This document shows positions 1,623 to 34,128 of a DNA stretch of 35,151 nt, piece after piece. Under the pieces are notes generated by a model, which did no database searches, was not told the origin of the DNA, and saw only the letters and a list, made by a program, of their open reading frames with translations. Numbering within the stretch: position 1 is the first letter of the stretch; every line of letters begins with the position of its first letter. Position numbers and translations under genes: made by a program. Origin of the DNA: Rickettsiales bacterium (lineage in GTDB: Bacteria; Pseudomonadota; Alphaproteobacteria; Rs-D84); NCBI GenBank assembly GCA_031273075.1, contig JAISSM010000019.1, forward strand, positions 1-35,151, read 5' to 3'.

Positions 1623-3131
1623 TTAGACAAGCCTTCGCGTTTTCGCAAAGAAATCGTTCTCTTCGCAAACCGGCTTTATGTCGACCATTTTCGGCGACGG
1701 GCTTATATTCATATCCGCGATCCTGTCATAGCCGCATATACGCACTATGTCGGAGGTCAATTTTTCCGCTATCGCGTCGTCGACGCGCCAAGGCGGACAG
1801 CTTACCGTCCAAAGTTCGCGGTCGACCGTGATTTCATAACCGAGTTTTTCAAGGATCTCTTTTTGCGTTTTTTCATCGACGTCGAATCCTATTCTTCGTT
1901 TGAAAAATTTCGGGTCGTATTTTATTTTCGGGCCCGTGAATTCCGCCCGGACGCAACTTGCCGCCGAAATTTTTCCGCCGCATTCCTTCATAATGATTTC
2001 CGACGCCAAGGCAAGCGCCTGTGTCGTCATGGTCGGGTCTATGCCGCGCTCAAACCTGTAACTCGAATCCGTCGAAAGGCCCAAACGACGGCGCGTTTTC
2101 CTTATTCCCAGCGGTTCGAAATACGCGGATTCCAAAATTATATTTTCGGTTTTGTCCGTCGTCATTCCGCGCTTGCCCCCCATCACGCCCGCAAGCGCGA
2201 GTATCCCGTCCGCGTCCGTGATCACAAGGTCGTCCGCCGAAAGAATGTGTTCGGCGTCGAAAAGGTCCGTGAATTTTTCGCCGTCCTTCGCGTTCCTGAT
2301 TATAATATCGCCCTTGATTTCGTCCGCGTCGAAGCAATGCATCGGCTGACCTATATCAAAGCAAACATAATTCGTCGCGTCGACCGGCGCGTTCTTCGGA
2401 TTGATTCCGATCGCGGACAGGCGCGATGCGATCTTGTCGCACGACGGCGCGATTTTTATTCCGCGGATTTCAACGAAGTTATAGGTCGGGCATCTTTCCG
2501 GGTTTTTAATAACAATTTTTCGGGATTCGGGATTCGGGATTCGGGATTCGGTTCCCGCCTTCGCGGGAATGACAGGGATTCGGGAGGCGATGAATTTTCC
2601 TATGCCGGTTGCGGACAGATCGCGCGCTATGCCCCGGACGGCCAAATAATCCGGGCGGTTCGCCAAGACCTTCGCATCGAACACGGCGTTCGCGTCGGAC
2701 GCCTTTTCGCCGTTCCACGGTTCGCCCAATTTCGCGTTTTTAAGCTCCATAATCCCGCCGTGATCGTCGCCGGCGCCCAATTCCTTTTCGCTGCACATCA
2801 TTCCGTCGGATTCGAATCCCTTGATTTTTCCGACTTTGATTTCAACGCCCCCGACAACGCATCCCGGACGCGCCAAGGCCGACACAAGTCCGACACGGCA
2901 ATTCGGCGCGCCGCACACGACCTGTCTTATATCCTTTCCGTCATCCACTTTAAGCAGATGCAGATGCGTGTCCGGTATGTCGGAACATTCGACGATTTTC
3001 GCCGCAACGGGTTCGGAAGGCGCGGACAGATTTTCGACTTCAAGCCCTATGCCGGTCAATTTGTCCGCAATCCCGCGCGCCGTCTCCTTTGTGTCCAGAT
3101 AATCCAAAAGCCAATCGTAAGTCCAATTCAT
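1623..3131 (-). CDS. pheT: phenylalanine--tRNA ligase beta subunit, N-terminal fragment (tRNA-binding, B3/4 and B5 domains), ending at an in-frame TAA (1623-1625)
   Basis: ATG at 3129-3131 lies 1 nt after the pheS stop. MNWTYDWLLDYL start and the VVCGAPN / MMCSEKELG tRNA-binding-domain motifs are present. Confidence 0.9.
   Translation of the reverse strand: MNWTYDWLLDYLDTKETARGIADKLTGIGLEVENLSAPSEPVAAKIVECSDIPDTHLHLLKVDDGKDIRQVVCGAPNCRVGLVSALARPGCVVGGVEIKVGKIKGFESDGMMCSEKELGAGDDHGGIMELKNAKLGEPWNGEKASDANAVFDAKVLANRPDYLAVRGIARDLSATGIGKFIASRIPVIPAKAGTESRIPNPESRKIVIKNPERCPTYNFVEIRGIKIAPSCDKIASRLSAIGINPKNAPVDATNYVCFDIGQPMHCFDADEIKGDIIIRNAKDGEKFTDLFDAEHILSADDLVITDADGILALAGVMGGKRGMTTDKTENIILESAYFEPLGIRKTRRRLGLSTDSSYRFERGIDPTMTTQALALASEIIMKECGGKISAASCVRAEFTGPKIKYDPKFFKRRIGFDVDEKTQKEILEKLGYEITVDRELWTVSCPPWRVDDAIAEKLTSDIVRICGYDRIADMNISPSPKMVDIKPVCEENDFFAKTRRLV
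2522..2581 (-). repeat. heptad-flanked palindromic repeat inserted in frame inside pheT
   Basis: (GGGATTC)x4, then hairpin TTCCCGC-CTTC-GCGGGAA, then a fifth GGGATTC. It translates as SRIPVIPAKAGTESRIPNPES. Confidence 0.8.
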
Positions 3132-3132
3132 C

Positions 3133-4110
3133 TTAAAATCCTTTCGCTTCAAGCCAGCGTATGTCGCCGTCGAAAAATTTGCGTATGTCGTTAAGTCCGT
3201 ATTTCAGCATAGCAAGTCTGTCAAGGCCCGGTCCGAACGCGAAGCCCTGGACCTTGTCCGGATCAAGCCCGCACATTCGAAGCACGTTCGGATGCACCAT
3301 GCCCGCGCCGCCCATTTCCAGCCAAAGGCCGCTTCCCTTCGACGGAAGGCCCGTTTTTTTATCCCATTCCAAATCGAATTCTATGCTGGGCTCCGTAAAC
3401 GGGAAGTACGACGGGCGGATGCGAAGCGATATGTCCTTCGTTCCGAATATCAATTCAAGATACGTTCTTATGTCGGATATCAGGTCCGCAAGCGTTATGT
3501 CCTTTCCCAAGACCACGCCGTCGTATTGGTGGAACATCGGCGAATGCGTCGCGTCCAGATCGCGCCTGTATGTCGCGCCCGACGTGATGACCTTGGTCTT
3601 GTCTTTGCGCTTTGTCATTTCGCGCACGGTAACCGTCGTCGAATGGCCGCGCAGAAGATTGTCGGTTCCCTCTATGAAAAACGTGTCCTGCATGTCGCGC
3701 GCGGGATGATACGGCGGAACGTTCAGCGCGGTGAAATTATGGAAATCGTCCTCCAGTTCCGGCCCTTCGGCCAATTCGTATCCCATGCTTTGGAAAACGC
3801 GGCTTAAATCCTTCCAGATTCGCGTCAACGGATGGACCTTGCCCGACCGTTCCGGCGCGGGGCTTCTTGTCGCGTCGATCTTGTCGCCGGACAACGCGGC
3901 CATTATTTTTTCATTCTCTATTTCCGACCGGCGCGTTTTGAACGCGTTCTGCAATTCTTCCTTTTCCGCATTAAGCGCCGCGCGCTCTTTCTCCGGCAGA
4001 TCCTTCATCGTTTTAAGACGCGCCGTCATGGTTCCGTTTTTGCCGAACGCGGCCGAATGCAATTTCTGCAGCTCTTCAAGATCGTTTATTTTTTTTATCT
4101 GTTCCAACAT
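3133..4110 (-). CDS. pheS: phenylalanine--tRNA ligase alpha subunit
   Basis: 325 aa from ATG 4110 with a GGAAAGGA SD. Class II aaRS motifs are present (FPFTEPSIEFD, GGAGMVHPNVL). The upstream extension to 4257 is implausible. Confidence 0.95.
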   Translation of the reverse strand: MLEQIKKINDLEELQKLHSAAFGKNGTMTARLKTMKDLPEKERAALNAEKEELQNAFKTRRSEIENEKIMAALSGDKIDATRSPAPERSGKVHPLTRIWKDLSRVFQSMGYELAEGPELEDDFHNFTALNVPPYHPARDMQDTFFIEGTDNLLRGHSTTVTVREMTKRKDKTKVITSGATYRRDLDATHSPMFHQYDGVVLGKDITLADLISDIRTYLELIFGTKDISLRIRPSYFPFTEPSIEFDLEWDKKTGLPSKGSGLWLEMGGAGMVHPNVLRMCGLDPDKVQGFAFGPGLDRLAMLKYGLNDIRKFFDGDIRWLEAKGF

Positions 4111-7678: not shown

Positions 7679-7684
7679 TTTAAT

Positions 7685-7712
7685 TAGCAAATAGCAGGTA
7701 GCAATTAGCAAT
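7685..7712. repeat. TAGCANN heptanucleotide tandem array (4 units)
   Basis: tagcaaa tagcagg tagcaat tagcaat. A near-identical array lies at 15966-15993. Confidence 0.85.
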
Positions 7713-7916: not shown

Positions 7917-8774
7917 TTATGTTATCGCGGCGCGGCGGCGGAGTTGTTTCAGCAATTGATCGGCCTGGAACAATGCGCGTTTGTAAATCGCGTTTTGTTT
8001 TATTATATCGTCCAGTTGTCCCCACTCTTTCGTTTTCTTTTTATCGCATATCAAAAATGTCCGCCCCTCCGTCAACGGCGACCACGCAAAGACTTCAAGC
8101 CCTATAAAGTGTTCGCGTACTTCCGGCGCAAGCTCGTACTCCAGGGCATTTATTTTTTGCGGCGCTCCACCGAGTTTTTTCGCCATATTCTCGGCATCGA
8201 TGCACGAGTTCGGTTTTCCCAATTTATCATATATCTCTTTCGGAACGTCTATAAGGCGCAGAAACGTCACGTCCAAGGGCAAACCGTGCGCCCTTTCCAA
8301 ATCCGCCATTTCCATATCCAAATCCGATTCCGAGACAGATATCGACGGAACCAGCGCGCGCATTATCATTATTTGCCACGAAAGCGTCGCGCGCGCATAA
8401 AGCCGCATTTGCGGATTATCCTTGTGTTCTTTTATCGCGGCCGCGACTTCCTTTTCAGACGGTTCTATTTTCATCGACTTGGCGTATTCGAGTTTTATAT
8501 AGTCGTCTATGATCGCGTTTTTCGCCGCGTCGCGATTATTAAGGGCCGGCGGTATTATCTTTGTTCTTTCCGTAATGTCGACGTCGGTTATCGGGTTGCC
8601 GTTCACGGTCGCGACGATCGTCGCCGCCATTGTCAATGAAGAATGAAGAATGAAGAATGAATAAAGAAAAATGAATAAAGCTCCCCCTCGGCGCCAAAGG
8701 CGCCACTCCCCCTCAAGGAGGGGGAGACAGGGGCCGCCCAGAAACCGAAATAAAAAACTTTCTTCATTCTTCAT
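7917..8774 (-). CDS. surA: SurA-like periplasmic chaperone (N-terminal chaperone domain, no obvious PPIase domain); start uncertain (8774 or 8630)
   Basis: ATVNGNPITDVDITERT... resembles the SurA N-terminal domain, and the gene lies directly downstream of lptD as in Proteobacteria. Only the 8774 start provides a signal-peptide-like N-terminus. Confidence 0.6.
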   Translation of the reverse strand: MKNEESFLFRFLGGPCLPLLEGEWRLWRRGGALFIFLYSFFILHSSLTMAATIVATVNGNPITDVDITERTKIIPPALNNRDAAKNAIIDDYIKLEYAKSMKIEPSEKEVAAAIKEHKDNPQMRLYARATLSWQIMIMRALVPSISVSESDLDMEMADLERAHGLPLDVTFLRLIDVPKEIYDKLGKPNSCIDAENMAKKLGGAPQKINALEYELAPEVREHFIGLEVFAWSPLTEGRTFLICDKKKTKEWGQLDDIIKQNAIYKRALFQADQLLKQLRRRAAIT

Positions 8775-8789
8775 TCTTCATTCTTCATT
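8635..8789. mobile_element. MITE-like element with 27-nt heptad terminal inverted repeats around GC hairpins
   Basis: AATGAA(GAATGAA)x3 at 8635-8661 faces (TTCATTC)x3TTCATT at 8763-8789. They flank hairpins ggcgcc-aaa-ggcgcc and ctccccct-caa-ggagggggag. Confidence 0.6.
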
Positions 8790-8792
8790 ATT

Positions 8793-10826
8793 TTACTTTC
8801 CCATTTTTATCGAAAATTTCAATTTGAACGACTGAGAGCCGCGAAAGCTCAATTCTTTGTCAGCATCGTATATTTTGCTCGCATTGTCAACGCTGTATAT
8901 GAATCCGAGCGTATAGCACGGATGTTCGTAATACACCCCCGCGTTGTATCTTTGCGGGGTTTGCTCTTTGAAATTATACACGCCCCAGCCGCGGACCGCC
9001 ATTCTGCCCGTAAGATAAACGCCCGCGCCGACGGTCCCTTCGGATATGTCGTCGCCGCCCCTGGTATAATCGTTGTCCAAAAACTGAACCGCCCATATGT
9101 ATCCGACCGACACATAGTTTTTCCCGCCGACGCGCACGTCCGTTTCCACATGGCGCAGATCGGCTCTTTCCTTGCCGAACCTGGATCTTGACGTAATGGA
9201 AAGCCCGTTCAGCGGATCAAGCCCCACGCGGCCGACCATATCGGACGCGCCGCGTCCAAGGGTATTATATCCGCTGTTGGGATCCGGACCGGAATCCGTG
9301 TCAAAGTCATAGGTTTGGCCTATGAAAATTTCCGCCCCGCGCCCCGCCTCGTCGTACCCGGTCCACATGATCCCATAATCCGCATACGTTCCGTTCACCC
9401 ATTCGTCGTATCCGGAATATCTGTTGTTCGAAAACAGCGACGCGTCGGATAAAATCGCGCCCCTGGAATCAAGATTCGCAAAGTTCTCGTTTCTGGACCG
9501 CCCCAGCGCCGTCACGCGCGCCTTCGGCCTTATGATTTGCGTGAAATCATTCCCGGCGCGGACAAACGGCATTTCCCAATCGACATAGCCGGACGGAAGC
9601 AGGCGCGATTCGTACCCGTCCCACATCCGATCCCTCGCGCTGTAATTATAATAGTAATAATGGTCGCTTCGCGCCGCGGCGCTTAGCGTGAATTTCTGCC
9701 ACGCGAATTCCAGCGGCGCGACCACGCGCCCCTCTCCTATCGCGCGGTTCACGGACCAATCGTTGTCCATATCGCCGATGCGCATCACGTCGCCCATGAA
9801 GCGGCCGTATAGATTTTCAGATATCCCGACCTGATATACGCCGTGGATCTTGGGCAAAATATCGCCGTCCGGAATCTTAGTCCGCCCCCAACCGCTTCTT
9901 AAGTCCTGGAATATGTTCGCGTCCATGGTCGCATAGCCGCGCTCTTCGAACAACTCCAACTTAACGTTCGATTCCAAAAACGGCTGGTCGTCGTAAAACT
10001 CGTATTGCTGAAGGTAAGTTTTGTCGGACGTGCGCTGAATATTCGCCTTGATGCGCGCGTTTTCGCCAAGCTCTATCGCATCGTTGTGGAACAGGTGCCA
10101 TCTGTCAAGCCCCGTTCCCCGCATTTTCGTGTACGACCCGGCCGTGTCGAATTCCGCGCGATCGGCGCGAAGGCGATGCTCTATCCGAACCAGCGGGTTT
10201 TCCCTGGTAAGGTACGTTCCGGTCACCGTCATATCGTGGTATCCGGAAAAATTTATGTAAAGCGGAACGTTTATCCCAGTTCCCGTATTGGTCGCGGAAC
10301 TGAATTCCGGAACAAGCAGGCCGGACCTGTATTTGACAGTCGGGTCCGGCTGAACGACAAGCGGAAGATAAAAAACCGGCACGCCGTACATATCGAACCA
10401 GAAATTATAAAAATACATTTCCTTGGCCGCGGCGTCGTGCGACGCCCCCGTCGCGCGGACCGTCCACGCCGTGACCGTTTCGTCGCAATTATGGCACGCG
10501 GTATAGGTTATATTGTCGGCCTTGGTCAAATCTTCATTTTTCCCGAACGTTTCGGCGGTCATCATCGTCCGTTCGTCCCACTCCATCACGACATTTTTTC
10601 CGCCCGCGGTCGTTTTCGACAGGTGCGCGTCCAAAAGCGTGATTTTCTGTCCGGTTTTTCCGACGATCTCCGTCTTGCCCGACGTTTTAAGGTTGCCCGA
10701 TTTCACGTTGTATTTCAATTTGTCCGCGGAAATTTCCTTGTATTCGACGTCAAGCGACGCCGCGTATGCCGCGGCAATGAAGAATGAAGAATGAAGAATG
10801 AAGAAAGAGCAAAGCAACTTTTTCAT
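8793..10826 (-). CDS. lptD: LPS-assembly outer-membrane protein LptD (OstA)
   Basis: 677 aa with signal peptide MKKLLCSFFILHSSFFIAAAYA, an OstA-like N-terminus and a large beta-barrel region rich in Y/G/aromatic-ended strands. Its ATG overlaps the stop of the upstream permease (ATGA). Confidence 0.88.
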   Translation of the reverse strand: MKKLLCSFFILHSSFFIAAAYAASLDVEYKEISADKLKYNVKSGNLKTSGKTEIVGKTGQKITLLDAHLSKTTAGGKNVVMEWDERTMMTAETFGKNEDLTKADNITYTACHNCDETVTAWTVRATGASHDAAAKEMYFYNFWFDMYGVPVFYLPLVVQPDPTVKYRSGLLVPEFSSATNTGTGINVPLYINFSGYHDMTVTGTYLTRENPLVRIEHRLRADRAEFDTAGSYTKMRGTGLDRWHLFHNDAIELGENARIKANIQRTSDKTYLQQYEFYDDQPFLESNVKLELFEERGYATMDANIFQDLRSGWGRTKIPDGDILPKIHGVYQVGISENLYGRFMGDVMRIGDMDNDWSVNRAIGEGRVVAPLEFAWQKFTLSAAARSDHYYYYNYSARDRMWDGYESRLLPSGYVDWEMPFVRAGNDFTQIIRPKARVTALGRSRNENFANLDSRGAILSDASLFSNNRYSGYDEWVNGTYADYGIMWTGYDEAGRGAEIFIGQTYDFDTDSGPDPNSGYNTLGRGASDMVGRVGLDPLNGLSITSRSRFGKERADLRHVETDVRVGGKNYVSVGYIWAVQFLDNDYTRGGDDISEGTVGAGVYLTGRMAVRGWGVYNFKEQTPQRYNAGVYYEHPCYTLGFIYSVDNASKIYDADKELSFRGSQSFKLKFSIKMGK
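10776..10802. repeat. GAATGAA heptad array inside the lptD signal-peptide codons
   Basis: AATGAA(GAATGAA)x3, identical to 8635-8661. In minus sense it encodes SFFILHSSFFI. Confidence 0.85.
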
Positions 10827-15965: not shown

Positions 15966-15993
15966 TAGCAATTAGCAGATAGCAGGTAGCAAT
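15966..15993. repeat. TAGCANN heptanucleotide tandem array (4 units)
   Basis: tagcaat tagcaga tagcagg tagcaat. Same position relative to a terminator as the 7685-7712 array. Confidence 0.85.
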
Positions 15994-16706
15994 TAAGGGG
16001 TGCAAGCGGTATAAGTGAACGTTCCTTTTGAATCCGAATAAGTGCCCGATATGGTAAGTGCCGGTGAAGTGGTTTCTTCATAACCAGTTCCGCATGACGC
16101 CGTGTCCGCAACGGTTTTGTAATTGGAATTCGTGGTACATGTTCCGCTCGCCGGACAGGTTACGGAGGATATGGTGGTTGGCGCCGGTATTGTGAGGAGC
16201 GCGGAACGCGAACACATGCTGTACGTGCCGTCCCGGATACAGTAGATCGCGCAGCGGTTCGCGCAAAACTGCCGACAGTCGGCCGCGCCGAGGTCGTAGT
16301 TGCCGCCGAAGTACACCCAGGGCGCGCCATTACTGTCCGCCGGACAGGTTTGATTATTAGTACTATCAACTATGTTGGTGACACGACACCAGCAATAGTA
16401 TCCACTACTAGAAGTGTTGGCCACGGGTGGATTTGTCGAATTGTTTGCGGCGCATCTCGATTGACCGCTTATACTTCCAGTTCTGCCAAGTCCGTTTGTT
16501 ATTGTAACAGTAAACGTTGCATCGGCACTGGATGAGGCCGTTTGGCATGTAGGGTTGCATGTATGACTGCTGTTACTGGATATACTGGTATTGCTATTCC
16601 AAGGGTGGGTGCTTACCCAATCGCATGGTATTCCTTTGCACAGTTTTACGGCAAACGCCGGCGGCGCAAGCGCAATAAAGAAAGTGATCAATAAAAGTTT
16701 TTTCAT
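15993..16706 (-). CDS. Cys/Ser/Thr/Asn-rich secreted protein (orphan)
   Basis: 237 aa from ATG 16704-16706 with an AAGGA SD. Signal peptide MKKLLLITFFIALAPPAFA, about 20 Cys, AT-rich codons. The track's upstream extension reads through repeats. Confidence 0.7.
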   Translation of the reverse strand: MKKLLLITFFIALAPPAFAVKLCKGIPCDWVSTHPWNSNTSISSNSSHTCNPTCQTASSSADATFTVTITNGLGRTGSISGQSRCAANNSTNPPVANTSSSGYYCWCRVTNIVDSTNNQTCPADSNGAPWVYFGGNYDLGAADCRQFCANRCAIYCIRDGTYSMCSRSALLTIPAPTTISSVTCPASGTCTTNSNYKTVADTASCGTGYEETTSPALTISGTYSDSKGTFTYTACTP

Positions 16707-19499: not shown

Positions 19500-19540
19500 T
19501 TTTTTACCTTTTGGTTAGTTTATCATTTTCCCAACTGGTT

Positions 19541-19659
19541 GTTCGCGCCAGAATTGCGCCAAATCGGAACAAAACCTCCCCACTCATGTACCCATCAGTA
19601 CACTTCGGGGTCGGTTTCGCACCACCTTGGCACATTCTAACGCGAACAAGTGCGTTAGA
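19541..19659 (-). repeat. intercistronic structured RNA element, type B (copy 1, rpsK|rpoA)
   Basis: Outer stem GTTCGCG/CGCGAAC. It shares about 100 nt with copy 4, including the core CACTCATGTA...GTACACTTCGGGG. Confidence 0.8.
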
Positions 19660-19665
19660 CGCGCA

Positions 19666-20425: not shown

Positions 20426-20443
20426 ATACTTTCTTCCTTTAAT

Positions 20444-20489
20444 CTATCGGGTCGCGTGAAACTTTTGACGCGACGTCCTTGCTTGACCC
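20444..20489 (-). repeat. intercistronic structured RNA element, type A minimal form (copy 2, secY|rpsM)
   Basis: ctatcGGGTCGCGTgaaacttttgACGCGACgtccttgcttgaccc. Only the outer hairpin and the conserved flanks are present. Confidence 0.75.
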
Positions 20490-20541
20490 TTTTTTATTCT
20501 TTTTATTACGGTTTCCTATTTTATCCTAATATTCCGCAATG

Positions 20542-21858
20542 TCAAACGCGAAAGCGACTTTTCTTGCCCGCCTTTTTGATCACGCTCGAATATTGCTTTG
20601 CGAAGATATAAGACTGTATCTGATTGAACGTGTCAAGCACGACGCCCGCGACGATCAGAACGCTTGTCCCGCCGATCACAAGCGGCATTCCGAACCTCGT
20701 GTTAAGCACTATCGGCATGCAGCACACGAATATAAGGTACGCGACCCCGATCGTCGTCGTGCGCGAAACTATATCGTCCAGAAACATCCGCGTCTGTTCG
20801 CCCGGACGGACGCCGGGGATATAACCCCCCGCGTTTTTAAGGTTGTTCGCCGTTTCCTCGGAATTAAACACTATCGCCGTTTGGAAAAACGCAAAGAACG
20901 CGACCAGAAAAGAGAAAAGGATTATATACGACCACGTTCCGTACGTGAAGAACGCCATGACCTGCTGGTACCAAAGCGAATCGGACTCTATAAACTTCGT
21001 CAGAAACGCGGGAAGCATCATTATCGACGACGCGAACACCGGACCCATCACGCCCGACATATTCAATTTTATCGGAAGGTAAGACGATTGGTTGTTCTGC
21101 ATGCCCATCATCGAAGCCTGGCGCGGATAAAGTATCTGTATCCGGCGCTGAGACTGTTCCATGAACGCGATCAGCGCGATTATGCCGACGACAAACGCCG
21201 CGATCACGAACATCATGAACGGCGACACGCTTCCGACGCCGCCAAGCTGGGCCAGCTTTACGATCCCGCCGGGTATTTCGGCGACTATCCCCGCGAATAT
21301 CAACAGCGACGCGCCCTGACCGAAACCGCGCGCGGTGATTTGCTCCGCAAGCCACATTACGAACGACGTTCCGCCGACCAGCGCCACGACCGTCGATATT
21401 TCAAAGAACAGGCCCGGATTCACCACCGCCGGAACGCCGTTCACCGGCGGCATCGCCGACAATCCCTTCGCGACCGCCCATCCCTGGACTATACACAGCA
21501 CTATGGCGAGATAGCGCGTGTATTGGTTTATTCTGACCCGGCCCGATTCGCCTTCCTTGCGAAGCTCGCTCAGCGTTTTCGACGCCGTGGACATCAGTTG
21601 TATAACTATCGACGCGGATATGTACGGGAAAATGTTCAGCGCCAAAACGGACATTCTGGACAATGATCCGCCCGCGAACACGTCGAACATGCCCAGCATT
21701 CCGGTGCTGTCGTCGAACAGGCGAAGGACGGCCGACGCGTTCACGCCCGGAAGCGGAACGAACGAGCCGACGCGGTATATGACGAGCGCGAACAATGTAA
21801 AAAGCAGCCGCTTTTGCAGATCGCTTAAACCGCTTAAATATTCCTTGATTATCGTCAT
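20542..21858 (-). CDS. secY: preprotein translocase subunit SecY
   Basis: 438 aa from ATG 21856-21858, overlapping the rplO stop (ATGA). Ten-TM pattern; starts [40 protein letters not shown]. Confidence 0.97.
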   Translation of the reverse strand: MTIIKEYLSGLSDLQKRLLFTLFALVIYRVGSFVPLPGVNASAVLRLFDDSTGMLGMFDVFAGGSLSRMSVLALNIFPYISASIVIQLMSTASKTLSELRKEGESGRVRINQYTRYLAIVLCIVQGWAVAKGLSAMPPVNGVPAVVNPGLFFEISTVVALVGGTSFVMWLAEQITARGFGQGASLLIFAGIVAEIPGGIVKLAQLGGVGSVSPFMMFVIAAFVVGIIALIAFMEQSQRRIQILYPRQASMMGMQNNQSSYLPIKLNMSGVMGPVFASSIMMLPAFLTKFIESDSLWYQQVMAFFTYGTWSYIILFSFLVAFFAFFQTAIVFNSEETANNLKNAGGYIPGVRPGEQTRMFLDDIVSRTTTIGVAYLIFVCCMPIVLNTRFGMPLVIGGTSVLIVAGVVLDTFNQIQSYIFAKQYSSVIKKAGKKSRFRV

Positions 21859-22869: not shown

Positions 22870-23256
22870 TTATTTTACCTTTTTTATATTATTCGAACAT
22901 TCCATAATATAGTATGTTTTTGCCGCAATTGCCGAAGCAAAAGCCGATGCCGAGGCGCTGAACATCGGGATCGTGGTCGATAAATCAACCATTTCCGCCG
23001 GAACAGACGACAACACCGTGCCGGACAACATAAGAGGCATGCCCGATATCGCCAAAATCCAATTTGCCGCCTCATTTTCCTTTGGAAGCCGCCGGCCCCG
23101 CTCCAAATTAAATGTAAGTTCTTTACACAGCCAACTCGTAGAACATTTTTCACATAACCAATCCGCAAAATTTTCGAGCTTAGTCGACAGGGTTGCGCCT
23201 TGACCCGGTTGCAACAAATTGCCATCCAAAAAATTCTTGCCAAGAGGGTTCGTCAT
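22870..23256 (-). CDS. orphan cistron between rplR and rpsE (128 aa, hydrophobic C-terminal half)
   Basis: ATG 23254-23256 lies 16 nt after the rplR TGA with an AGGA SD. Its TAA is 2 nt before the rpsE ATG. AT-rich. Putative TM segments: [23 protein letters not shown] and [17 protein letters not shown]. Confidence 0.6.
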
Positions 23257-23639: not shown

Positions 23640-23837
23640 CTATTTTTCTTTCGCTATTTTCGCAATTTGGTCCTTGGAATACGACTTCGACTGCTTCCAC
23701 TCCTTGAATAATTTTAATATCTCTTTTTTACATTCAACGCCCTTGGATATGATCTGGCCTTTTTCCACATCCACCAAATCATAGGTTCTTCTCTCCACAA
23801 CTTTCAATGAATCGGTTTTCCTTATTACCTTTTCCAT
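23640..23837 (-). CDS. orphan cistron between rplF and rplR (65 aa, Lys-rich)
   Basis: ATG 23835-23837 lies 4 nt after the rplF TAG, and its stop is 16 nt before the rplR ATG. AT-rich. Starts MEKVIRKTDSLKVVERRTYDLVDVEKGQIISKGVECKKEILKLFKEWK... Confidence 0.55.
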   Translation of the reverse strand: MEKVIRKTDSLKVVERRTYDLVDVEKGQIISKGVECKKEILKLFKEWKQSKSYSKDQIAKIAKEK

Positions 23838-23841
23838 TTTA

Positions 23842-26071: not shown

Positions 26072-26338
26072 TTACTCCACATCCACTTTGGTGTCCTGTT
26101 CCACGCCGATTTTCGATTTCAGTATCCATGTCTTGGTTTTTGAAATCGGACGGTGTTCCTCTATGGTCACGACTTCGCCGACTTTGCCGGAATTGTCTTC
26201 GTCGTGCGCCTTGTACTTTTTATTGTGCTTCACGAATTTTCCATACAGGGGATGGCGGAACTTGCGTTCCACCTCCACAACGACGGTCTTGTCGTTTTTA
26301 TTGCTGACTATTGTTCCTTGCAGTACTCTTCTAGGCAT
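26072..26338 (-). CDS. rpsQ: 30S ribosomal protein S17
   Basis: [36 protein letters not shown]... is canonical S17. It sits after rplN, which is a non-canonical position. Confidence 0.96.
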
Positions 26339-26352
26339 CTTGTTTTCCTTTT

Positions 26353-26727
26353 TTATAATACTTCCGGCGCGAGGGAAATTATCTTCTGCACGTCGTATTT
26401 TTTTCTTGTTTCGCGCGCGACCGGTCCGAATATGCGGGTGCCGATGGGCTCGAAATTATTCTTATTTATCAGGACGACGGCGTTGTCGTCAAAGCGGATG
26501 ATGGATCCGTCCGCGCGCCGCGTCGGGAATTTCGTCCTTATTATAATGGCGCGCTGAACCGTTCCTTTCTGAACCTTGCCGCGCGGAATGGCGTCCTTTA
26601 TCGCGACGACGATTTTGTCGCCGACGGCCGCATAGCGGCGATGCGATCCGCCCAGCACTTTTATGCAAAGGCATTTTTTCGCGCCGCTGTTGTCCGCTAC
26701 GTTTAATATAGTTTCAGTTTGAATCAT
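26353..26727 (-). CDS. rplN: 50S ribosomal protein L14
   Basis: [28 protein letters not shown]... is canonical L14. Confidence 0.97.
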
Positions 26728-26746
26728 ATCTTTGTGTTTCCTTTAA

Positions 26747-26872
26747 CCTGTCGGGTCGCGTGAAATTCCCGCCACTTCGGGGCGGAGCCCGCCCACTCAT
26801 GTAACTATCCGTACACTTCGGGGCGGGTTCCACCCCAAATTGTCGGTTTTTGACGCGACGTTCTTGTTAGAC
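26747..26872 (-). repeat. intercistronic structured RNA element, type A full form (copy 3, rpmC|rplN)
   Basis: Outer stem GTCGCGT/ACGCGAC, a middle module, and the apical core CACTCATGTAACTATCCGTACACTTCGGGG. Confidence 0.8.
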
Positions 26873-26874
26873 TT

Positions 26875-27069
26875 TTATTTATTTGTTCCTTGCTTATTTA
26901 ACTTTGTCTTTATGCGGGCGACCTCGCGGCGATTTTTGCGGATCACGTGCGTCTTCGGCAATTGCCCCGCCGCATGTTGAAACCGAAGATTCATCCCGTC
27001 TTTTTTAAGATCGGCCAGTTTTGATTCCAACGCTTCCCTGTCCAAATTCACATCTTTCGCCTTTGCCAT
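26875..27069 (-). CDS. rpmC: 50S ribosomal protein L29
   Basis: ...LESKLADLKKDGMNLRFQHAAGQLPKTHVIRKNRREVARIKT is canonical L29. Confidence 0.95.
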   Translation of the reverse strand: MAKAKDVNLDREALESKLADLKKDGMNLRFQHAAGQLPKTHVIRKNRREVARIKTKLNKQGTNK

Positions 27070-27070
27070 T

Positions 27071-27265
27071 TTATTTCACCTCGTACTTTTTCAACTGCCT
27101 TTTTAACCGGCCATTTTGTTTCATCATCTTTTCAAATTTATCCTTTGCCGACGCCGTTTCTTCTTTTGCAAGAAAAACCTCTTTCATAATGTCCGTGTCC
27201 GATGCCAACTTCAAGATTTGATCCAAATGATACTTGATATTTTCAAACTCAAGCATCTTCGCCAT
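27071..27265 (-). CDS. orphan cistron between rplP and rpmC (64 aa, helical/charged)
   Basis: ATG 27263-27265 lies 2 nt after the rplP TAA, and its own TAA is 1 nt before the rpmC ATG. AT-rich. Starts MAKMLEFENIKYHLDQILKLASDTDIMKEVFLAKEE... Confidence 0.55.
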   Translation of the reverse strand: MAKMLEFENIKYHLDQILKLASDTDIMKEVFLAKEETASAKDKFEKMMKQNGRLKRQLKKYEVK

Positions 27266-27267
27266 TT

Positions 27268-27681
27268 TTAATTCGCCTTTCTTTCGACTATTTTCGTTTT
27301 GACCGGAAGCTTCGCGGACGCGAGCGTCAACGCCTCGATCGCGATTTCCGGCTTCACGCCGTCCATTTCGAATATTATGCGGCCCGGCTTTACGCGGCAC
27401 ACCCAGTATTCCACCGCGCCCTTTCCCTTTCCCATGCGGACGCCCAAGGGTTTTTTCGTCACCGGCACGTCCGGAAAAATGCGGATCCAAAGACGGCCAA
27501 GGCGGCGCATGCGGCGCGTGATGGCGCGGCGGGCGGCCTCTATCTGGCGGCTTGTCACGCGCTCCGGCGTCATGGCTTTAAGTCCGAACGACCCGAACGC
27601 AAGTTCCGATCCGCCTTTGGCGACGCCGTGAATGCGGCCCTTGTGCTGTTTCTTAAACTTTGTTTTCTTCGGTTGCAACAT
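27268..27681 (-). CDS. rplP: 50S ribosomal protein L16
   Basis: [24 protein letters not shown]... is canonical L16. Confidence 0.97.
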
Positions 27682-28407: not shown

Positions 28408-28427
28408 ATTTTTTATCCTTCTTTACT

Positions 28428-28551
28428 TGCCGGTTCGCGTTATAATGCGCCAAATCGGCACGAAACCTCCCCGCTCATGTAACTATCCGTACACTTCGGG
28501 GTCGGTTTCGCACCACCTTGGCACATTCTAACGCGAAGTCCTTGCTTGTCC
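28428..28551 (-). repeat. intercistronic structured RNA element, type B (copy 4, rplV|rpsC)
   Basis: In minus sense it folds into a rod hairpin of about 110 nt (stems of 9, 8, 11, 5 and 5 bp) with several G.U pairs. Same apical core as copies 1, 3 and 6. Confidence 0.8.
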
Positions 28552-28555
28552 ATTT

Positions 28556-28990
28556 TTATTTCTTTTTTGTTTCTTTTTTCTTTTCCGTTTTTGCGACTTT
28601 CGTTTTCTCTTTCGGCGCGGGCGCACCCGATTCCAAAACGATCGTAAGATGCGAGAACGGTTTCAAAATCGGCTTTGCCTGACCGCGCGGCCCGGCGCGA
28701 TAACGCTTCATCGTGATCGCCTTACCGACCCAGATTTCCTTCACGAACAAAGAGTCCGCGTTCATCTTCTTGTTGTTCTCCGCGTTGGCGATCGCGGACA
28801 AAAGGGTTTTCAAAACTTCGCCCGCAACGCGCTTTTTGGAAAATTTCAGCGCGTCGACCGCCTTCGCCACCGGAAGGCCGCGGACCAAATCCGTCACCAG
28901 TTGCAGTTTATACATAGACGTGCGGATAAGCTTGTTGTACGCGCGCACCTGATTTTCCGCCAAATTGTATCTTGTCTTTTCTTTCGCCAT
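28556..28990 (-). CDS. rplV: 50S ribosomal protein L22 with a Lys-rich C-terminal tail
   Basis: ...AYNKLIRTSMYKLQLVTDLVRGLPVAKAVDALKFSKKRVA... is canonical L22. Confidence 0.96.
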   Translation of the reverse strand: MAKEKTRYNLAENQVRAYNKLIRTSMYKLQLVTDLVRGLPVAKAVDALKFSKKRVAGEVLKTLLSAIANAENNKKMNADSLFVKEIWVGKAITMKRYRAGPRGQAKPILKPFSHLTIVLESGAPAPKEKTKVAKTEKKKETKKK

Positions 28991-29271: not shown

Positions 29272-29292
29272 TTTATTTGTTCCTTTTTTACT

Positions 29293-29376
29293 CTGCCGGG
29301 TCGCGTGAAATTCCCGCCACTTCGGGGCGGGGTCCACCCCAAATTGTCGGTTTTTGACGCGACGTCCTTGCTTGCC
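29293..29376 (-). repeat. intercistronic structured RNA element, type A intermediate form (copy 5, rplB|rpsS)
   Basis: Outer stem plus the middle module (cccgcc-acttcgg-ggcggg; ggtccacccc), without the apical core. Confidence 0.75.
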
Positions 29377-29397
29377 TATTTTCTTTTATTTACCTTT

Positions 29398-32375: not shown

Positions 32376-32690
32376 TTATAATTTTATCTTTACATCCACT
32401 CCGCTCGCCAGATCCAACTTCATCAGGGCATCTACTGTCTGAGGGGTTGGATTCACAATATCGATCACGCGCTTGTGATTGCGAATTTCAAATTGTTCGC
32501 GCGACTTTTTGTTCGCGTGCGGCGAACGGTTGACCGTGAACTTCTGTATCATGGTCGGCAAAGGAACGGGCCCGACAACCTTCGCGCCGGTGCGGTCCGC
32601 GGTCTTCTTGATCTCGTCGGCCGCCTCTATAAGCGTCCTGTGATCATAGGCGGTCAATTTAATCCTTATCCTCTGCGAATCCATAGCCAT
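32376..32690 (-). CDS. rpsJ: 30S ribosomal protein S10
   Basis: ...[41 protein letters not shown]... is canonical S10. Confidence 0.97.
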
Positions 32691-32700
32691 CTTCTTTTAA

Positions 32701-32828
32701 TCCGTCGGGTCGCACGGAATTCCCGCCATTATGGGTGGTTTCCGCCCACTCATGTAATTATCCATACACTTCGGGGCGAAAACCACCTCATACTGTCGGT
32801 TTTCTGTGCGACCGTTTTTGTTTGACCC
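32701..32828 (-). repeat. intercistronic structured RNA element, type A full form (copy 6, tuf|rpsJ)
   Basis: Outer stem GGTCGCAC/GTGCGACC, compensatory relative to copy 3. A 14-bp middle stem and the apical core CACTCATGTAATTATCCATACACTTCGGGG are present. Confidence 0.8.
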
Positions 32829-32842
32829 TTTTTCTTTTACTT

Positions 32843-34100: not shown

Positions 34101-34128
34101 ATTATATATGCAAAAATCAAAAAGTCAA
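34101..34128 (-). promoter_or_regulatory. candidate internal sigma70 promoter for tuf
   Basis: In minus sense: TTGACT (34123-34128), 16-nt spacer, TATAAT (34101-34106), embedded in phased T/A tracts. Confidence 0.5.

Follow-up and report, generated by a model that had tools for sequence, protein, structure and literature searches.

Six copies of an imperfect palindromic repeat lie between the str-S10-spc-alpha ribosomal-protein genes of an uncultured Rickettsiales-like alphaproteobacterium. We describe them in a 35,151-nt stretch of forward-strand sequence (NCBI GenBank assembly GCA_031273075.1, contig JAISSM010000019.1, positions 1 to 35,151), which is referred to below as the window. These six elements are probably a repeat of the miniature inverted-repeat transposable element (MITE) or REP-like kind that the operon tolerates, and may use, as an RNA rod between cistrons. 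The family is new but its kind is well known (ERIC, Correia, REP-like): palindromic repeats that are transcribed within operons are a classic theme, and the elements do not represent a new kind of regulator. The sole unexpected part of the finding is an apical tip that the rods share with mobile elements elsewhere.

A repeat family at six intercistronic junctions

The ribosomal-protein supercluster occupies the minus strand of the window from 17.5 to 35.1 kb, and the S3 protein encoded there is 90-92% identical to proteins of metagenome-assembled genomes (MAGs) labelled Rickettsiales or Alphaproteobacteria. In a gene map based on Pfam, every copy was placed between two cistrons and none in coding sequence. 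The copies, and the flanks of copy 4, are as follows.

32706..32820, minus strand: copy 6, full-length rod at the tuf / rpsJ (S10) junction; unit 32689-32842 by covariance model
29297..29370, minus strand: copy 5, tipless rod at the rplB (L2) / rpsS (S19) junction; unit 29280-29392
28552..28566, minus strand: left flank of copy 4, GGNCAAGCAAGGAC, common to copies 2, 4 and 5, with a diverged form in copies 3 and 6
28428..28551, minus strand: copy 4, full-length rod of the second subfamily at the rplV (L22) / rpsC (S3) junction; unit 28414-28566
28408..28427, minus strand: right flank of copy 4, with a Shine-Dalgarno sequence (CCGGCAAGUAAAGAAGGAUAAAAAAU) immediately before the S3 start codon
26752..26866, minus strand: copy 3, full-length rod at the rpmC (L29) / rplN (L14) junction; unit 26735-26888
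20451..20474, minus strand: copy 2, minimal 7-bp hairpin GUCGCGUCAAAAGUUUCACGCGAC with family flanks at the secY / rpsM (S13) junction; unit 20431-20503
19536..19650, minus strand: copy 1, full-length rod with the most wobbles of all copies at the rpsK (S11) / rpoA junction; unit 19522-19662

A covariance model built from the six copies and searched against the 35 kb returned exactly six matches, all on the minus strand and scoring 66-170 bits, with the next best match at 14 bits; the reverse complements of the copies scored 21-43 bits under the same model. In each insert, the palindrome that forms the rod lies between a short conserved left flank and a right flank, and the latter provides the gene downstream with a Shine-Dalgarno sequence. 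Because the left flank is common to several copies, the repeated unit is larger than the palindrome. The right flank, CCGRCAGRUUAAAGGAA, is common to copies 2-6, and the distance from rod to ATG is 25-28 nt. No open reading frame (ORF) was conserved through the rods, as the small ORFs found there differ in frame and start between copies.

Two subfamilies, one with copies 1 and 4 and the other with copies 3, 5 and 6, could be aligned over their whole length. Copy 5 is copy 3 minus the tip. Two 13-nt direct repeats (CCGCCCCGAAGTG) bound precisely the segment that it lacks, as would be expected for a slippage deletion between them. Copy 2 retains only the basal 7-bp stem, and both it and copy 5 are deletion derivatives. 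The 5' halves of copies 1 and 4 are identical over 49 nt, as the initial annotation had stated. It had also described the differences between their 3' halves as transitions that keep the pairing through wobbles. Most are indeed C>U or A>G substitutions, after which a wobble remains, but there are also two transversions and one inserted A. These identical 5' halves with diverged 3' halves, together with the near-identity of copies 3 and 5 outside the copy 5 deletion, suggest recent copying or gene conversion.

Strand-asymmetric folding

The minus-sense sequence that had been quoted for copy 4 corresponds exactly to 28428-28551, and all helices attributed to it are present: UUCGCGUUA/UAACGCGAA, UGUGCCAA/UUGGCGCA with one U.G, GGUGCGAAACC/GGUUUCGUGCC with two wobbles, CCCCG/CGGGG, and GUGUA/UACAU with one G.U. 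The continuous rod formed by these helices is also the predicted minimum-energy structure. Minimum free energies (MFE) of both strands as RNA, in kcal/mol and given as minus / plus, with z-scores against dinucleotide shuffles, were:

Copy 1: -68.5 / -43.4; z -11.2 / -5.9
Copy 4: -66.6 / -49.8; z -8.9 / -6.1
Copy 3: -60.6 / -57.3; z -6.4 / -5.8
Copy 6: -60.4 / -56.9; z -9.5 / -8.7
Copy 5: -35.4 / -29.7; z -4.1 / -1.5
Copy 2: -11.8 / -13.6; z -1.4 / -1.8; no strand preference

The minus strand therefore folded better in all five long copies, both by MFE and by z-score, although the margin was small (3-6 kcal/mol) for copies 3, 5 and 6. The MFE structures of the five long copies contained 10, 6, 3, 2 and 2 G.U pairs on the minus strand versus 0, 0, 1, 0 and 1 on the plus strand, and the examples of wobble asymmetry that had been given for copies 6 and 3 proved correct. 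When the 5' arms of the six copies were aligned to their 3' arms, we counted 179 Watson-Crick pairs, 17 G.T, 2 A.C and 28 transversion mismatches. The last of these revealed a second asymmetry, beyond the one first noticed: read in the minus sense, 24 of the 28 are purine.purine (G.A, A.G, A.A) and four are pyrimidine.pyrimidine, an excess that strand composition does not account for (p=0.006). RNAalifold predicted 32 pairs from the six copies, and compensatory double changes were found in 12 of them.

From the wobbles, the initial annotation had concluded that selection acts on RNA structure in the mRNA and not on a DNA palindrome. One half of this conclusion stood, namely that pairing of a single strand, the operon-sense strand, has been maintained. 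The compensated pairs (12/32), the G.U:A.C ratio of 17:2, the purine.purine:pyrimidine.pyrimidine ratio of 24:4 and the same orientation of all six copies support it. The other half, that mRNA rather than DNA is the target, did not follow. DNA energy parameters ranked the strands in the same way, the composition of four-fold degenerate sites predicts a 2:1 skew, and tip-bearing rods elsewhere are equally biased. The common orientation is also forced, since each insert supplies a Shine-Dalgarno sequence to the gene downstream. The RNA rod would be expected to form, as the elements lie within a transcribed operon. Single-stranded DNA of minus polarity fits equally well, because DNA parameters also favour the minus strand in all five long copies (minus/plus: -31.7/-23.4, -36.4/-28.7, -32.5/-26.8, -33.0/-30.1 and -21.1/-15.5); DNA hairpins, too, accommodate G.T and sheared G.A. 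The G.U argument thus names the strand that pairs, but it cannot tell whether RNA or single-stranded DNA is involved, or whether selection or a mutation bias linked to transcription is at work.

Absence from close relatives

We compared the window with the closest relatives found (L037-L040, L043 and L044; S3 90-92% identical), in which neither pattern searches nor the covariance model detected a copy. The L29|L14 gap measures 0-3 nt in five of five relatives, and the L22|S3 gap 1-2 nt in three of five, being longer in L037 and L040. In L038, L043 and L044 both junctions are thus tight (0-3 nt). As the elements are absent from the matching junctions of the closest relatives, they are recent insertions. 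Upstream of the insert at L2|S19, the sequence TAAAAAGGTAAATAAAA still shows the ancestral junction (compare L040). The ribosome-binding site of a downstream gene sits inside the upstream gene at tight junctions, so an insert survives there only if it comes with a new one. Two contigs of 2-3 kb from run SRR14710913, both matching the window at 100% identity, break off within copies 3 and 6, which is the usual behaviour of assemblies at repeats.

Two properties of MITEs are thus present in the window family, namely several similar, short, non-coding copies and empty sites in relatives. Several observations weigh against a mobile repeat of this kind. All six copies lie within the ribosomal cluster and none in the remaining roughly 20 kb of the window. 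We found no consistent target-site duplication at the copies, whose flanks are A-rich and homologous between copies: candidate 8-mers (AAATAAAA at copy 5, TAAAAGAA at copy 6 and AAGAAATA/AAAAAATA at copy 4) fall in A-rich sequence with inconsistent offsets and boundaries. No clear terminal inverted repeats were found outside the palindrome, and since the element is palindromic throughout, inverted ends follow trivially. Homology between copies runs into the flanks, which would be expected from recombination or duplication no less than from transposition.

Unrelated long hairpins occupy tuf|S10 and fusA|tuf in relatives (L037 5541-5608, L038 5745-5797 and L040 5723-5815; L037 4209-4352), and these too fold better in the sense strand (for example -30.1 vs -16.2 and -42.3 vs -15.9 kcal/mol). 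The tuf|S10 hairpins have no sequence relationship to the window copies. From the predicted folds, rod-like RNA structures at the tuf|S10 junction seem to be recurrent in the clade.

The apical tip and its occurrence in other rods

Copies 1, 3, 4 and 6 carry the same apical module.

28474..28497, minus strand: apical module of copy 4, GAAGUGUACGGAUAGUUACAUGAG
19583-19606, minus strand: same module, copy 1
26796-26819, minus strand: same module, copy 3
32749-32772, minus strand: same module, copy 6

The 33-nt tip of these copies reads GAAGUGUA-NN-GAU-NNN-UACAUGAG. At the core of the module, C-GRA-GUGU ... ACAU-GAG, a 3x2 purine internal loop sits on a G.U/U-A/G-C/U-A stack. The tip pattern had four matches versus 0.00 expected. 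Elsewhere, it was found at 36 loci in an exact scan of one genome per species and at 32 more in a metagenome scan, and these loci represent a few families of roughly 110-nt rods. The window-type tip with CCC/GGG flanks had no hits in an exact scan of JGI metagenomes, viral contigs gave none, and a full-text literature search for the tip sequence returned nothing.

In Desulfobacterota MAGs (JAHYIV01, CALENA01 and FLOH01), the tip-bearing elements are 154 bp long, high in copy number and bounded by inverted ends GTAACTATCCAG and perfect 8-bp target duplications. By these sequence hallmarks they are genuine MITEs. We take GTAA ends and 8-bp duplications to be typical of IS66-family elements, which would make these MITEs IS66-like. 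Near them, no full-length parent transposon was found, only further MITE-like ends. A subset (L009, L021, L026, L033, L047, L061, L063, L070 and L071) has an extra insert of ~25 nt, GGTAAGCGAGCTTGCGAGACTCCGGATG, which forms a nested hairpin in the 3' arm. Bacteroidota rods occur as tandem or paired copies (L005 3190-3480 and L066 30-250; also L029, L048 and L076), and their CGAA-N-UGAG motif is present three times, in the 5' strand, the tip and the 3' strand, giving symmetric purine-rich internal loops that resemble loop E. In freshwater Burkholderiales, a tip-bearing rod occupies a single conserved locus, antisense in a 3' untranslated region (UTR) and upstream of a terminator. Gammaproteobacteria have isolated copies.

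Tip variants in L005 (GGAGUGUGC-UACU-GCACAUGAG) and L023 (GGAGUGUAU-UAACU-AUACAUGAG) reduce what is conserved to C-GRA-GUGU ... ACAU-GAG and leave the distal stem and loop free. An alignment of 24 distinct tips, drawn from five families, has 87.8% of its cells paired, a value that none of 500 shuffles reached (shuffled: 73.9%). Double changes were found in 8 of 13 pairs, and shifting the partner by 1-3 columns reduced pairing to 22-53%. The invariance of four tip pairs is not evidence of conservation, since it is partly fixed by the search pattern. We also examined candidate identities for the tip. A CsrA site was ruled out, as GGA is in the loop of copies 3, 4 and 6 only and UGA is found in copy 1 and all other families. 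A kink-turn has a 3-nt bulge 5' of tandem G.A, the sarcin-ricin loop has AGUA/GAA, and a hammerhead has CUGANGA and three stems. On inspection against these consensus motifs, which is a weak test, none fitted the tip, which has GRA opposite GA (3x2) and no three-way junction.

All 54 distinct foreign rods folded better in the tip-sense strand, by a mean difference of 15 kcal/mol. Relative to neighbouring genes, the MITEs lie in about 6 sense and 10 antisense positions, 5 between convergent and 6 between divergent genes. Because the rods are biased in 54 of 54 cases yet occur in any gene orientation, strand bias is a property of this kind of tip-bearing element and not of the host operon alone. 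Those foreign elements that can be typed move as double-stranded DNA, and for them a role of the rod at the RNA level would be the simpler reading. Only the tip links the window family to the foreign rods: its covariance model scores them at 17-24 bits, and the GTAAC/GTTAC ends of the foreign copies are not present in the window copies.

Alternative explanations

The strand that pairs could matter as DNA. If the relevant structure were single-stranded DNA of minus polarity, for example a lagging-strand-template hairpin for strand-specific mobility or recombination of the IS200/IS605, REP-RAYT or integron attC type, then the preference of DNA energy parameters for the minus strand in the five long copies would be explained. 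Where transcription and replication run in the same direction, the lagging-strand template is the sense strand of the gene, and tip-bearing rods elsewhere are biased whichever way the neighbouring genes point, as this account would have it. We nevertheless consider it quite unlikely, as the typable tip-bearing elements have inverted terminal repeats and 8-bp duplications, which are hallmarks of double-strand DDE and not single-strand HUH transposition. Moreover, neither a GTAG-type REP signature nor attC R'/R'' boxes were seen on reading the sequence, and purine-rich non-canonical loops are typical of RNA motifs. About as improbable is the absence of any strand-specific selection, in which case transcription-associated mutation bias (C>T and A>G in the non-template strand) would leave decaying palindromes with G.U and not A.C in the sense strand. 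In the operon genes, four-fold degenerate sites (sense strand: G 1032, C 919, T 364, A 204) are skewed in the direction expected from such a bias. They set the neutral expectation at about 2:1 G.T over A.C and not 1:1, a null that is uncertain in that codon selection also acts on these sites. When wobbles shared by copies 1 and 4 or by copies 3 and 5 are counted once, 11 G.T events remain against 2 A.C (p=0.02 versus 1:1, about 0.14 versus 2:1), the full count of 17:2 gives about 0.03 versus 2:1, and copy-specific events number only 5 against 2. Much of the strand asymmetry is inherited between copies. Mutation bias alone does not explain the compensatory double changes, the purine.purine excess beyond composition, an asymmetric tip loop that is conserved across phyla, or the bias of 54 of 54 foreign rods regardless of host transcription.

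Two further explanations assign the rods a dedicated function in the host. The rods or their tips might be a cis-regulatory RNA that binds one regulator, ribosomal or another RNA-binding protein, to coordinate the translation or stability of six message segments. Three of the copies (those before S10, L14 and S13) coincide with operon boundaries of E. coli, all six are sense-oriented at a constant 25-28 nt from rod to start, and across phyla the purine-rich internal loop of the tip is conserved and its flanking helices covary. Set against this are the matching junctions of relatives with S3 proteins 90-92% identical, which have no copies. Two copies persist although the tip is gone from both and almost all of the rod from one. 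True MITEs, in either gene orientation, carry this tip too, as does an antisense rod in a 3' UTR, and no Rfam ribosomal-protein leader or other family matches, so that we regard a dedicated regulator as rather unlikely. We find it hard to believe that the rods split the cluster into several transcription units by acting as intrinsic terminators or attenuators. They are strong GC-rich hairpins at junctions, and good promoter matches lie just upstream of copy 2 (TTGACA-16-TAAAAT) and upstream of tuf (TTGACT-16-TATAAT). However, no rod is followed by a U-tract (the sequence there is CCGRCAG...), a terminator scan calls none on the minus strand, and copies 1, 3, 5 and 6 have no comparably good promoter behind them although the genes downstream are essential.

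Comparison with known repeat families

A MITE- or REP-like origin of the window elements invites comparison with other bacterial palindromes. REP, BIME and REPIN sequences are short nested palindromes at intercistronic or 3' sites that act as RNA stability barriers, with REPINs forming roughly 100-nt hairpins. The window copies resemble them in being short nested palindromes at intercistronic sites, but they have no GTAG-type head and the window has no RAYT gene. Correia elements, or NEMIS, of Neisseria have defined inverted ends, a TA duplication and an IHF site, and neither these ends with their duplication nor the site was seen in the window copies. A candidate IHF site in the elements was considered and did not fit. 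As in the window, these are MITE-like palindromes, for which the same mechanism as here has been put forward: Correia elements are co-transcribed, and their RNA stem-loops have been proposed to be RNase III substrates that modulate flanking transcripts (PMC2229807), a role that in our family is predicted only. ERIC sequences are likewise co-transcribed, form an RNA hairpin and affect mRNA stability in an orientation-dependent manner (PMC2229807). These sequences (ERIC/IRU) of enterobacteria and Yersinia, which measure about 127 bp, match the window copies in being imperfect palindromes that are intergenic and often lie within operons. They differ in phylum and show no sequence similarity, and only the window copies have the Shine-Dalgarno flank and the conserved apical module. 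BLASTn of copy 4 against 5,426 E. coli genomes found nothing, and hence no sequence similarity to ERIC, REP or BIME.

Rickettsia palindromic elements (RPE) are rod-forming repeats of 100-150 bp that proliferate in Rickettsiales and are famed for in-frame insertion into coding sequence. The window copies are also rod-forming palindromic repeats in Rickettsiales but differ in insertion site, as all six are intergenic; they are set apart here by the description of RPE and not by sequence. The highest MITE densities have been reported from Rickettsiales (PMC11602168). With the tip-bearing MITEs and rods of Desulfobacterota, Bacteroidota, Burkholderiales and Gammaproteobacteria, the window family shares the module C-GAA-GUGUAN-NGAUNN-NUACAU-GAG, a rod of ~110 nt and the preference for the tip-sense strand. 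The Desulfobacterota MITEs differ in their inverted ends, 8-bp duplications, large purine-rich internal loops and insertion in any gene orientation.

Other candidates were rejected. At the ends of the elements, the R'' (RYYYAAC) and R' (GTTRRRY) boxes of integron attC sites were absent on reading, and the flanking genes are core ribosomal genes. A ribosomal-protein autoregulatory leader was discarded, as the junctions in relatives have no element and no Rfam model matches. A promoter within the element was seen only in copy 4, as a 10-of-12 match in its left flank and base (28552-28525), and about ten such matches are expected by chance in the region. At the gathering threshold, Rfam gave no hits for the whole window, and with E-values up to 10 there were only chance-level hits (miRNA precursors, drum, snoRNA) for copy 4, the Desulfobacterota element and the Bacteroidota element. 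BLASTn against PLSDB plasmids found no match, and phages likewise gave nothing relevant.

Gene order and other features of the window

The Pfam-based gene order of the cluster, on the minus strand, is:

First half, minus strand: fusA - tuf - (copy 6) - S10 - L3 - L4 - unknown ORF - L23 - L2 - (copy 5) - S19 - L22 - (copy 4) - S3 - L16 - small ORF - L29 - (copy 3)
Second half, minus strand: L14 - S17 - L24 - L5 - S14 - S8 - L6 - small ORF - L18 - unknown ORF - S5 - L15 - SecY - (copy 2) - S13 - S11 - (copy 1) - rpoA - L17 - SecG

The order L29-L14-S17-L24, with S17 behind L14, is unusual and is found in the window (26072-26727, minus strand) and in all relatives. The S11-rpoA interval has no S4, and none of L30, adk, map, infA and L36 was seen in the interval from L15/SecY to S13. 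ORFs without a Pfam match lie between L4 and L23 (30647-30991), L16 and L29 (about 27071-27268), L6 and L18 (about 23640-23840) and L18 and S5 (22870-23256), all on the minus strand. In the relatives, small operon ORFs without a Pfam match lie at junctions that differ in part from those of the window, and most differ among genomes whose S3 is 90% identical. The L4-L23 ORF is kept in L038 (37% identity, E=9e-15), so at least some of these small ORFs are real genes.

Near-consensus sigma-70 promoter matches are found on the minus strand at 34101-34128 (TTGACT-16-TATAAT), in the fusA|tuf spacer and kept in L037, L038 and L040, and at 20518-20545 (TTGACA-16-TAAAAT), where the match overlaps the stop codon of secY and lies a short way ahead of copy 2 and S13. 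Outside the cluster, pheT, encoding the phenylalanyl-tRNA synthetase beta chain, is present as two ORFs about 40 nt apart (798-1583 and 1623-3152, both minus strand), which could be the result of a sequencing error, a frameshift or an insertion, or could mark a pseudogene. The heptamer AATGAAG forms runs in both orientations around the lptD region (8622-8683, 8758-8792 and 10756-10817), and a 26-nt repeat, AATTAGCAnATAGCAGGTAGCAATTA, occurs at two far-apart intergenic sites (7682-7707 and 15970-15995). A scan of the window for tRNA and tmRNA genes found none, and no transposase gene was found in it.

Proposed mechanism and implications

We propose that lineage-specific imperfect-palindrome repeats of the MITE, REP or ERIC kind colonised six intercistronic junctions of this operon. 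The rods would be co-transcribed with it and would take up their structure in the mRNA, with energies of -35 to -68 kcal/mol. Such folding would take about 115 inserted bases out of the path, so that of an insert of ~150 nt about 45 single-stranded nt would be left between stop and start. By analogy with ERIC, Correia and REP sequences, a duplex of 45-50 bp with small internal loops would likely be an RNase III substrate or a barrier to RNA decay, and the rods might cut or insulate the long polycistronic message at their junctions. The strand bias may be inherited in part from the biology of the element itself, given a tip shared with equally biased transposon-derived rods. It is probably retained because an essential operon tolerates only well-folded, sense-oriented inserts.

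A more far-reaching reading, which we hold to be doubtful, is that the tip is an undescribed, constrained RNA motif on mobile rods of at least four phyla or classes. It would be the target of a conserved factor and would have been domesticated here as punctuation or processing marks of the ribosomal polycistron, much as tRNAs punctuate mitochondrial transcripts. If the tip were functional, it would constitute a new mobile RNA module that no Rfam family covers. The repeat family itself is a clean, checkable case of strand-asymmetric conservation in a palindromic repeat. It also means that an essential and normally tight operon has accepted six insertions of ~150 nt, presumably since each of them folds out of the way and supplies a new ribosome-binding site.

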